From contig JBAYJA010000001.1 of assembly GCA_041665345.1 (NCBI GenBank), positions 265,206 to 329,205 of the forward strand: a DNA stretch of 64,000 nucleotides, in the 5' to 3' direction. Shown here piece after piece: positions 54,496 through 54,989 of this stretch. Numbering within the stretch: position 1 is the first letter of the stretch; each line of letters opens with the position of its first letter. Under the pieces are notes generated by a model. It saw only the letters and a list, made by a program, of their open reading frames with translations, ran no database searches and had not been told where the DNA came from. A program made the position numbers and the translations under genes. Source of the DNA: Patescibacteria group bacterium (GTDB lineage Bacteria; Patescibacteriota; Patescibacteriia; PEXW01).

Positions 54496-54504
54496 CCCCT
54501 CTTT

Positions 54505-54592
54505 TGTCATCCTGAGTCTTCGAAGGATCCTTCTGGAAGCACGTACTTGAGTAGCAAGATCCTTCGTCGAAGACTCCTCAGGATGACAAGAG
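54505..54592. repeat. REP-like long palindromic repeat (full, near-perfect copy)
   Basis: tgtcatcctgagtcttcgaaggatcc...gatccttcgtcgaagactcctcaggatgaca. Confidence 0.65.
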
Positions 54593-54629
54593 AGAAAAAT
54601 AAAAAGCGCCTTGATACAATCGCAGCGCA
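54590..54629. repeat. conserved left block of the intra-atp cassette (copy B)
   Basis: gagagaaaaataaaaagcgccttgatacaatcgcagcgca. Confidence 0.6.
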
Positions 54630-54635
54630 ACGGAA

Positions 54636-54806
54636 TTACACACTGTATTTTTCTAGGGATTTAGCTGCAAATTTAGTGATGATGCTACCTATTATCATCA
54701 TGAGCATCATTTTCCCTAGAGTAAGATCGCTGTTCCCGAAGATGTAGACAAATGGGGGAACAATGAGTAACCCCAACCCTGTTAAAAGCAAGTACATTCT
54801 AAACAT
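54636..54806 (-). CDS. small antisense ORF (56 aa), a two-TM membrane protein with its own promoter
   Basis: MFRMYLLLTGLGLLIVPPFVYIFGNSDLTLGKMMLMMIIGSIITKFAAKSLEKYSV. gagg lies before the ATG. On the minus strand TTGACA-17nt-TAGGTA lies at 54869..54841. Confidence 0.4.
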   Translation of the reverse strand: MFRMYLLLTGLGLLIVPPFVYIFGNSDLTLGKMMLMMIIGSIITKFAAKSLEKYSV

Positions 54807-54880
54807 TTTCAACCTCGATTTTTCTTTGTCTGGTAGTATATACCTAGCATTGAAAGTCCACCATGTCAACTAATATATCT

Positions 54881-54934
54881 CTGAAGCGAACCGCTAGGTG
54901 CGAAAGACCCTTTCGCCCCTGACCCATCTCTTCA
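54881..54934. repeat. conserved right block of the intra-atp cassette (copy B)
   Basis: ctgaagcgaaccgctaggtgcgaaagaccctttcgcccctgacccatctcttca. Confidence 0.6.
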
Positions 54935-54989
54935 CTAACAATCTCTATCTTGCCTACGGCTTACAGCGTATGGCTTACAGCTTCCCCCT

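Follow-up and report, generated by a model that had tools for sequence, protein, structure and literature searches.

The region considered here is the spacer between atpG and atpD in the ATP-synthase (atp) operon of a member of the Patescibacteria (Candidate Phyla Radiation, CPR), at positions 54496-54989 of a 64-kb window. The window, by which the whole stretch of DNA analysed is meant, is part of a 1.08-Mb metagenomic contig (ENA ERZ27249449 k141_1145919). Upstream of the spacer lies the plus-strand gene atpG (53599-54495), which encodes the F1 gamma subunit and was assigned by Pfam PF00231 and by its homologues, and downstream lies the plus-strand gene atpD (54990-56360), which encodes the F1 beta subunit (Pfam PF00006 and others). 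Between them, on the minus strand, is a small orphan gene framed by two conserved blocks, both of which recur in the 612-nt spacer between atpH and atpA (hereafter spacer 1, the atpG-atpD spacer being spacer 2). Few bacterial gene clusters are as compact and as conserved as ATP-synthase operons, and the genomes of Patescibacteria are strongly reduced. The arrangement is real and not a product of chance, and it is apparently undescribed so far. It is also no assembly artefact, since a second assembly made independently, L002 (Logan SRR6484324), matches the window without a difference over 9.4 kb.

Anatomy of the atpG-atpD spacer

The minus-strand open reading frame (ORF) of spacer 2, ORF56 (MFRMYLLLTGLGLLIVPPFVYIFGNSDLTLGKMMLMMIIGSIITKFAAKSLEKYSV; 54636-54806, stop codon included), is listed among the genes of the source annotation and would encode a 56-aa orphan protein with two predicted transmembrane (TM) segments. 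A Shine-Dalgarno (SD) motif, GAGG, is found at 54813-54816, 6 nt before the ATG, and is preceded by a predicted promoter at 54841-54869 that consists of a TTGACA -35 hexamer (54864-54869), a 17-nt spacer, and a TAGGTA -10 hexamer (54841-54846). A minus-strand 56-aa two-TM frame with exactly this promoter and SD motif had been proposed in a first-pass annotation of the window, and it was recovered here at 54636-54869. The -10 hexamer retains 2/6 consensus positions and is the weakest among the 12 cassettes compared below. ORF56 belongs to no Pfam or PADLOC family. Searches of 5.8 billion clustered and 1.84 billion representative proteins returned self-matches only, and an exhaustive phmmer search of the 1.84 billion representatives gave merely spurious low-complexity matches in giant proteins.

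At the downstream end of ORF56 lies the left block (54590-54629, minus strand), a 40-nt predicted intrinsic terminator that matches 51685-51725 in spacer 1. Within it, a strict repeat of 35 nt is 97% identical to 51691-51725, and one of its 28-mers has exactly two occurrences in 64 kb, where the expected number is 0. On the minus strand, the block forms a GC-stemmed hairpin, GCGCUGCGAUUGUAUCAAGGCGC, followed by a U-run, UUUUUAUUUUU. On the plus strand, the A-run comes before the hairpin, and the left block is therefore predicted not to terminate the atp mRNA. Homologues of the left block were found in 10 further cassettes, and in all 10 versions examined the minus-strand RNA fold is stabler than the plus-strand fold because G-U pairs in the stem turn into A-C mismatches on the plus strand. 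This G-U asymmetry shows the left block to be a predicted intrinsic terminator acting on the cargo strand.

The opposite end of the unit is formed by the right block (54881-54941), an imperfect hairpin with a core of ~54 nt (54881-54934). The core is identical to 51995-52048 at 52/54 positions, the identity being 92% when the match is extended to 61 nt (to 54941/52055), and the block has exactly two copies in 64 kb where 0 are expected by chance. The hairpin is composed of an outer stem (TGAAG/CTTCA) and an inner stem (GCGAAAG/CTTTCGC) with conserved internal loops, and has a z score of about -3. Ten copies from seven lineages are 74-98% identical; the cells that form its pairs are paired in 93% of cases over the 10 copies as opposed to 37-56% in slid controls, and its unpaired bases are near-invariant. 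Both strands of the hairpin fold about equally well, with no consistent strand signal from G-U asymmetry, and a U-tract after the hairpin is absent on both strands. The distance between the TTGACA -35 hexamer and the right block is 1-4 nt in 9/10 copies and 11 nt in spacer 2 of the window. On its other side, the right block ends 55 nt before the start of atpD and 60 nt before that of atpA. Every feature that the first-pass annotation had described is found where it had been placed or close by, including a left terminal block common to both spacers (97% identity), a right terminal block common to both (52/54 positions), and a similar spacing of the latter from atpA and atpD. From the right block to the atpD start codon runs a plus-strand tail of type 2 (CGCCTACGGCTTACAGCGTATGGCTTACAGCTTCCCCCT; 54942-54989), which is also found before atpA in relative L003 and before atpD in relative L017, and a type 1 tail is found before atpA in the window and before atpD in relative L005.

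The left block is not a repeat of the right block in either orientation, their local alignment score being no better than that of shuffles. Scanned with Rfam, at the gathering thresholds and at E <= 10, neither spacer matched an RNA family. A long-range interaction of one block with the other within the atp mRNA was also considered and dropped, as the only match in the window is 6 bp long and is not kept in relative L009.

The sister cassette of spacer 1 (51685-52055, minus strand) is built in the same way. Its left block (51685-51725) and right block (51995-52055) enclose ORF59 (51745-51924, minus strand), which is weakly DUF4177-like (E = 0.04), gave self-matches only in a homologue search, and is preceded by a predicted minus-strand promoter, TTGACA-17-TAAAGT, at 51990-51962. 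Between the blocks, the interiors of spacers 1 and 2 do not align, so that within this one genome identity falls from 96-97% in the blocks to an unalignable interior.

Occupancy and conservation in related lineages

Relatives were found through a graded series of AtpG homologues and through scans for DNA patterns, and their atp loci were compared. In 14 related Patescibacteria lineages, the same atp junctions either hold varied cargo framed by the blocks, once in tandem, or are compact, with 6-9 nt between the genes. The closest relative, with an AtpG 97% identical to that of the window, is represented by L003 and L017, which belong to one metagenome-assembled genome (MAG). It has the same blocks at both junctions, and these enclose a 78-aa two-TM ORF between atpH and atpA, and a 61-aa two-TM ORF together with a soluble ORF of ~78 aa between atpG and atpD. 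In L009 (AtpG 86%), both junctions carry a cassette with two-TM cargo, and the atpG-atpD junction additionally contains a gene for a REP-associated tyrosine transposase (RAYT) flanked by palindromes of the repetitive extragenic palindromic (REP) kind. L005/L019 (AtpG 85%) has a 20-nt spacer between atpH and atpA and a cassette with a 36-aa one-TM ORF between atpG and atpD. For L016 (Ca. Kerfeldbacteria; AtpD 84%) and L039 (AtpD 91%), the available sequence covers the atpG-atpD junction, which holds two complete tandem cassettes in the former, encoding a 72-aa DUF4177-like ORF (E = 1e-4) and a 127-aa Cys-rich ORF, and two-TM cargo in the latter. The more distant L013/L038 and L047 (AtpG 72% and 70%) have a left block, an antisense ORF, and a promoter without a right block between atpG and atpD, and 2-3 nt between atpH and atpA. 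Finally, L008, L011, L043, L045, L046, and L051 (AtpG 79-86%) have a 6-9-nt spacer between atpG and atpD and are likewise compact between atpH and atpA, with the latter junction not covered in L045. Occupancy is patchy over the phylogeny, as the AtpG of the empty L043 is 94-95% identical to that of the occupied L005 and L009.

All 12 cassettes, from eight lineages, have the same order of parts and are antisense to the atp genes. Each is composed of TTGACA, a 16-18-nt spacer, a -10-like hexamer, an SD-like motif before the ORF, and a terminator. The cargo proteins are mutually unrelated, including two-TM, one-TM, DUF4177-like, and Cys-rich proteins; most have 36-93 aa and one or two TM segments, and several are soluble. 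The GC content of the cargo is 0.30-0.45, compared with ~0.55 in the atp genes. Searches of the cargo from related loci against Pfam and PADLOC, with 10 proteins per library, gave sub-threshold matches only. These comparisons bear out two earlier proposals, namely that the unit is a modular cassette with conserved ends and an unrelated passenger (blocks 92-97% identical, interiors unalignable), and that it is an insertion when set against relatives in which the junction is compact (atpG-atpD spacers of 6-9 nt in six lineages).

A degenerate 24-mer pattern of the right block matched 5 loci in 185,579 GTDB species genomes, all 5 of them in atp spacers and from 4 MAGs, and an exact 22-mer of the right block had 0 matches in the GTDB genomes and 0 in the JGI metagenomes. 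In the JGI metagenomes, the left-block pattern gave 23 matches, of which 2 are real, both in atp operons, and the other 21 fell by chance in GC-rich coding DNA. When 239 kb of sequence (the window and relatives) was searched with a right-block covariance model, the 10 known copies were recovered and nothing else, and the right block was absent from IMG/VR viral contigs. The first-pass annotation had noted that a right block standing before many unrelated genes would point to a regulatory motif as opposed to a cassette; every real match lies in an atp operon. The block element is clearly not a dispersed repeat, and, judged from these searches, the cassette family appears to be confined to the atpH-atpA and atpG-atpD junctions of one Patescibacteria clade (one of the GTDB matches is labelled Ca. 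Kerfeldbacteria). A left-block-like terminator (AAAAAACAAAAGCGCCGTGAATAAATCGCAGCGCTT) is shared by three IMG/VR phage contigs (L048 11034-11058, L049 3874-3898, and L050 3577-3601). It sits in an ordinary intergenic region, ~1 chance match to the left-block pattern is expected in the viral contigs, and the likeness may be a matter of coincidence or convergence.

The blocks are better conserved than the genes around them. Between the window and L003/L017, the blocks are 97-98% identical and the flanking atp DNA is 84-88% identical; between L016 and L005, the right block is 92% identical and atpD is ~76% identical. The left-block core is identical in L016, L009, and L039, and the AtpD protein of L016 is 83-84% identical to those of L009 and L039. 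The two copies within a genome also resemble each other in their details. The left-block loop TTGATACAATCGCA is present at both sites in the window and in the 97% relative, and the loop ACGAGGTTATCGCA is present in both copies of L009 and in both copies of L016. The right block of spacer 2 in the window is a mosaic that has two substitutions in common with its L017 orthologue and its loop in common with the spacer-1 copies. In addition, a tail type that precedes atpA in one genome may precede atpD in another. Taken together, the concerted blocks, the mosaic right block, and the exchanged tails would be signatures of recombination between the two junctions. Two statements of the first-pass annotation did not survive this comparison. 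It had treated the atpG-atpD unit as the second copy, and the atpG-atpD site proved to be the more widespread and is probably the older. It had also counted two independent insertions, which is at odds with the concerted evolution of the copies, i.e., with left-block cores that are identical within a genome and differ from one genome to another, and with a spacer-2 right block that is mosaic.

Proposed function and exchange of the cassette

The reading that is favoured here, at a little better than an even chance, is that the region and its counterpart in spacer 1 are two copies of a lineage-specific, self-insulated antisense expression cassette, the blocks of which double as recombination anchors. 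On the minus strand, such a cassette would consist of a ~54-nt hairpin, a sigma-70-type promoter, an SD motif, a small orphan ORF, and an intrinsic terminator. In the first of their two roles, the blocks would provide the signals for expression and insulation, with a terminator that works on the minus strand only and that would halt antisense transcription before it reached atpG or atpH, thereby sparing the atp mRNA. Every cassette would be antisense because this terminator is one-directional and a cassette in the sense orientation would truncate the atp mRNA. In their second role, the blocks would serve as short, portable homologies, that is, as crossover points. Recombination at the blocks, whether by gene conversion between the junctions or by exchange between genomes, could then give rise to duplication, tandem arrays, and swaps of cargo. 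The anatomy, the distribution, and the pattern of conservation were read directly from sequence, and it is from these that we infer expression of the cargo, recombinational swapping, and any effect on ATP-synthase expression. Since the differences between genomes are open to neutral decay, the case for modularity is built on comparisons within genomes (the window, L009, and L016).

Several observations weigh against this reading. The compared genomes are different species with ~86% nucleotide identity in the atp genes (at least 12-14% diverged in conserved genes), and part of the difference between their interiors could reflect neutral divergence rather than swapping. A test for mosaic tracts detected no raised identity in the atpD genes beside the cassettes. 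Nor did the searches turn up a reservoir of cassettes outside atp operons from which new cargo could have come. Covariation support for the right-block hairpin is thin, as a single pair is altered on both sides among the 10 copies, and the near-invariance of its unpaired bases suggests sequence-specific recognition by a further factor, of which simple homologous recombination has no need. ORF56 itself, with the poorest promoter, a displaced -35 hexamer, and no homologue, may be in decay or may be no gene at all. Lastly, the promoter, the terminator, and the translation of the cargo are predictions.

Of the known systems, the nearest is a phage motif. In T4-type phages, the promoter early stem-loop (PeSL) combines a sigma-70-type promoter with a stem-loop upstream of small ORFans and is thought to be a crossover point (Arbiol et al., 2010, PMC2839356; Comeau et al., 2014, PMC4122927). 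PeSLs number ~50 per phage genome, lie in hyperplastic regions, and have been shown experimentally to give mini-circles (PMC2839356; PMC4122927). As in the PeSL, a repeated composite of promoter and stem-loop lies directly 5' of small ORFans and the similarity stops at the motif: TTGACA is 1-4 nt from the hairpin in 9/10 cassettes and 11 nt from it in spacer 2, and beyond the motif the cargo consists of unrelated orphans. The swapping, duplication, and deletion of unrelated genes are in both cases ascribed to crossover at the motif, here on the strength of sequence patterns. Unlike the PeSL, the element lies on a Patescibacteria chromosome and not in a T4-type phage, and its right block is absent from IMG/VR. 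There are one or two block copies per junction (up to two or three per genome) at two junctions of one essential operon. Whereas the PeSL stem-loop serves as a transcription terminator or attenuator, the hairpin here is not followed by a U-tract, and termination would fall to a second conserved element, the left block, at the far end of the unit.

Parallels with other systems are more limited in scope. The minimal mobile elements (MMEs) of Neisseria, as summarised in the account of Snyder et al. (2004; PMC406496, cited in PMC1538595), occupy a fixed site between conserved genes that holds differing genes or none. Like the cassettes, they are described there as having no mobility genes, and their exchange is ascribed to homologous recombination after DNA uptake. 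According to the same account, MMEs use the flanking genes as homology arms, without conserved internal end blocks, whereas the atp cassettes keep their conserved blocks within the spacer, at a site internal to an operon, their cargo is antisense in every case, and atpD shows no recombination tracts. Phage morons are likewise autonomous promoter-gene-terminator units of deviant base composition within a conserved operon; unlike them, the cassettes are not in a prophage, are antisense to the host operon, and keep their boundary sequences across differing genes. Integron cassettes, with their attC sites, and clusters of attC sites lacking integrases (CALINs) share with the atp cassettes a low GC content, a tandem array (in L016), and small, mostly orphan ORFs that are each accompanied by an imperfect-palindrome hairpin of ~55-60 nt, the hairpins being similar within an array. 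They differ in that the atp cassettes have no R''/R' boxes, no integrase nearby, and no attI, have a promoter and terminator of their own, carry the hairpin upstream of the promoter and not after the ORF, and form arrays of at most two units in the atp operon only. Overall, the cassette is best classed among the ORFan cassettes flanked by regulatory motifs, and is notable among them for lying in the ATP-synthase operon of a reduced-genome symbiont.

Membership in several element classes was considered and rejected. An attC identity was rejected because the R'' (RYYYAAC) and R' (GTTRRRY) boxes are absent, with GTCAAC on one side only and no GTT box at the opposite end in 10/10 copies. Membership in an integron or CALIN was likewise rejected, with no integrase Pfam domain within 10 kb in the annotated loci and at most two hairpins per array. 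Insertion sequences (IS) of the IS200/IS605 type and palindrome-associated transposable elements (PATEs) were discarded since the hairpins at the two ends are unrelated (their score is no better than that of shuffles) and copies occur in atp spacers only. Miniature inverted-repeat transposable elements (MITEs) or IS with terminal inverted repeats (TIRs) were discarded since 611/1000 shuffles equal or exceed the score of the TIR alignment that was observed and no consistent duplication is found at the edges.

Two other explanations place the function of the cassette in the expression of the atp genes themselves. In one, which is plausible but rather unlikely, the cassette is a cis-antisense RNA device, and the transcript rather than the peptide would tune the stoichiometry of the atp operon. 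Pairing with the spacer of the atp mRNA would trigger cleavage, the right-block hairpin would protect the 5' end of the resulting atpA or atpD fragment, and the REP and left-block hairpins would guard the 3' end of the upstream fragment, so that more alpha and beta would be made than delta and gamma. Each enzyme contains three copies of alpha and beta and one of delta and gamma, and cassettes are found just 5' of atpA and atpD and nowhere else. The conservation of the promoter edge with its hairpin and of the terminator, with an interior free to vary, is also what such a device would need, some G-U pairs of the plus-strand hairpin fold are specific to that strand, and in E. coli malEFG, REP elements are known to stabilise the upstream mRNA in an operon. 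However, all 12 interiors keep an SD-preceded ORF, for which a pure RNA device has no need; six lineages, some with an AtpG 94-95% identical to that of occupied ones, do with 6-9-nt spacers; one L016 right block precedes another cassette and not an atp gene; the 70-72% relatives have no right block; and two changes in the hairpin are tolerated on the minus strand only, leaving no consistent strand signal. In the other explanation, raised in the first-pass annotation, the right block is a shared leader or internal promoter that re-initiates or enhances the transcription or translation of atpA and atpD. Its placement 55-60 nt 5' of both genes in the window and its conservation in relatives would fit this role, yet the idea is not borne out and is considered very unlikely. 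There is no plus-strand promoter-like site in or after the right block and none is conserved in the tail, the sole strong one being a TTGACA-16-TACAAT site 5' of the atp operon (49062-49089). The distance from the right block to the start codon ranges from 29 to ~200 nt, with REP insertions in between, the block abuts the -35 hexamer of the minus-strand cargo, and it matches no Rfam family. Moreover, the right block is also present inside the L016 tandem array, where one copy is followed by a cassette, and is missing from compact relatives and from the cassettes of L013 and L047 (the 70-72% relatives).

The remaining explanations concern the mobility and the product of the cassette. A site-specific mobile cassette, integron-like or IS200/IS605/PATE-like, would use the right-block hairpin as a single-stranded DNA site for a recombinase or Y1 transposase encoded elsewhere, which would insert and exchange cassettes at the two atp junctions. 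Such a system would account for a 54-nt imperfect palindrome with conserved unpaired bases, near the short end of the attC size range, that is far better conserved than the adjacent genes, as well as for the tandem array, the patchy presence across lineages, and small orphan cargo of low GC content (0.30-0.45); a Y1-family gene does lie at the atpG-atpD junction of L009. This gene, however, is a RAYT, and the sequences that flank it are its own REP palindromes and not the blocks. Furthermore, the foot of the hairpin lacks complementary R''/R' (AAC...GTT) boxes, the 10 kb on either side contain no integrase in any Pfam-annotated locus, the left block resembles the right block neither as a hairpin nor as an inverted repeat, and each block has one or two copies per junction, with none outside atp operons and no right block in viral contigs. 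The explanation is thus judged quite unlikely. Also considered was a module resembling type I toxin-antitoxin (TA) systems, in which the hydrophobic peptide would be a membrane toxin and the atp mRNA its antisense antitoxin, so that a loss of atp transcription would free the toxin. This could be overlaid on the cassette architecture favoured here and is compatible with it, and is, on the sequence features, very unlikely. ORF56 and most of the other cargo fall in the range of 36-93 aa and have one or two TM segments (ORF56 has 56 aa and two hydrophobic segments; not all cassettes encode such a peptide), overlap with the atp mRNA is by geometry fully antisense, and each unit is tightly insulated. 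The type I systems Hok/Sok, Ldr, Ibs/Sib, and TisB also combine a short hydrophobic peptide gene and a complementary transcript with duplication within a genome and fast-evolving peptides. Unlike these systems, the cassettes have no dedicated small antitoxin RNA, its place being taken by the atp mRNA, and several of their cargo proteins are soluble, namely the DUF4177-like proteins, the 127-aa Cys-rich protein, and a 78-aa basic protein. None of the cargo matches a known toxin family or PADLOC model. A bolder proposal, and a long shot, combines the two ideas into a site-specific exchange system aimed at the two F1 junctions: the hairpin would be a recombinase site, and the atp mRNA would silence a mostly membrane-active cargo that is freed when atp transcription collapses, e.g., under phage attack or during starvation of the episymbiont. 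If that were true, the essential operon would both shelter the cassettes and gate the expression of their cargo.

What the comparison brings to light is a slot in the atp operon that takes interchangeable orphan genes, one that has been kept or repeatedly regained over the clade and whose framing blocks are better conserved than the enzyme genes. Such a slot is unexpected because of the compactness and conservation of atp operons and the strong reduction of Patescibacteria genomes. If the reading of the region as an antisense expression cassette with recombining blocks is correct, the principle of the phage PeSL, in which one motif is both a regulatory signal and an anchor for the shuffling of ORFans, would extend to a cellular genome. 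The cassettes would also form a natural catalogue of lineage-specific small membrane proteins in episymbionts whose surface and energy biology are poorly understood, and antisense transcription together with REP hairpins could modulate the stoichiometry of the F1 subunits.

REP-like palindromes and neighbouring features

Between atpG and the left block lies a REP-like nested palindrome of family A (TGTCATCCTGAG...CTCAGGATGACA; 54499-54594), composed of inverted repeats, the last 5 nt of which overlap the left block. It folds at -47.4 kcal/mol (z = -7.3). Other family A copies are present in the window at 36566-36657, at 48043-48131, and at ~7639-7663, and a 16-nt REP arm has 8 matches in 64 kb, in 4 palindromic copies, compared with 0.6 expected. 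Family A palindromes also flank the cassettes of L003, L005, and L009. The L009 RAYT gene mentioned above matches NF047646 (the NCBIfam model "REP-associated tyrosine transposase") with 114.7 bits, against a cutoff of 80; no RAYT gene is present in the 64-kb window. The REP-like label that had been given to this palindrome from sequence is thereby well-founded, both in the copies within the window and in a RAYT gene that stands with such palindromes at the atpG-atpD junction of L009. The palindromes resemble REP/RAYT systems (REPtrons) in their size of 90-130 nt, their intergenic dispersal, the presence of several families per genome, and, in L009, the flanking of a RAYT. The cassette blocks, in contrast, are not REP copies, are not dispersed, and have no association with a RAYT. 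The REP palindrome belongs to a repeat that is dispersed over the genome and unconnected with the cassette blocks, and that gathers at the edges of the cassettes.

At least three REP-like families occur in the window: A (TGTCATCCTGAG...), B (GGGTAGGCGAGGTCCCTTGACC...), and one that is C-like (GGAGTAGAGACTTTAGTCTCTT...). Their palindromes are found at 7639-7797, 36566-36657, 48043-48131, and 51562-51684; families A and B adjoin at ~7.6-7.8 kb, and in spacer 1 a nested palindrome has a C-like outer part and a family B part. In L009, a REPtron-like unit (10900-11570) lies between atpG and the cassette and consists of the 168-aa RAYT gene within family C palindromes. In L005, a family A copy (11303-11425) follows the right block and is enclosed by a direct repeat of CTCTTCAA; the repeat may have arisen by duplication of the target or may mark a favoured site of insertion. 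A small hairpin pair (AGCCACTTCAGTGGCG ... CCCGACTAAAGTCGG) is found both at the start of spacer 1 (51503-51556) and between the tandem cassettes of L016 (838-905). Short-read contigs L003 (end, 10955), L004 (start), and L002 (start, window 54559) stop in or beside the atp spacers, because the REP and block repeats break assemblies there.

The remaining genes of the operon are all on the plus strand: atpB (49422-50168), atpE (50295-50522), atpF (50589-51092), and atpH (51095-51496) precede spacer 1, atpA (52109-53596) follows it, and atpC (56360-56779) follows atpD. Just 5' of the operon, L003 differs from the window in that an Eco47II-type restriction enzyme gene and a MerR-fused DNA methylase gene (2582-4632) are inserted between the CvpA-like and TP_methylase genes. 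Directly 5' of the operon in L013 (4358-5718; also in L014) is an RVT_1 reverse transcriptase gene with a bAvd accessory gene, a locus that looks like a diversity-generating retroelement. In L006 (an ERZ1286166 contig of 1.09 Mb), many atp and adjacent genes are fragmented relative to the near-identical L005, probably as a result of long-read indel error and not of pseudogenisation. No heliorhodopsin gene was called in the annotated stretch of the window, and in most relatives one is found a few kb 3' of the atp operon (L005 14967-15779, L008 17770-18558, L009 17417-18208, L011 19246-20037, L013 16230-17018, and L047 11289-12068). Elsewhere in the window, the tRNA-Ala(cgc) gene (24742-24837) is 96 nt long, compared with the usual ~76 nt of a tRNA gene, and may contain an intron or insertion.

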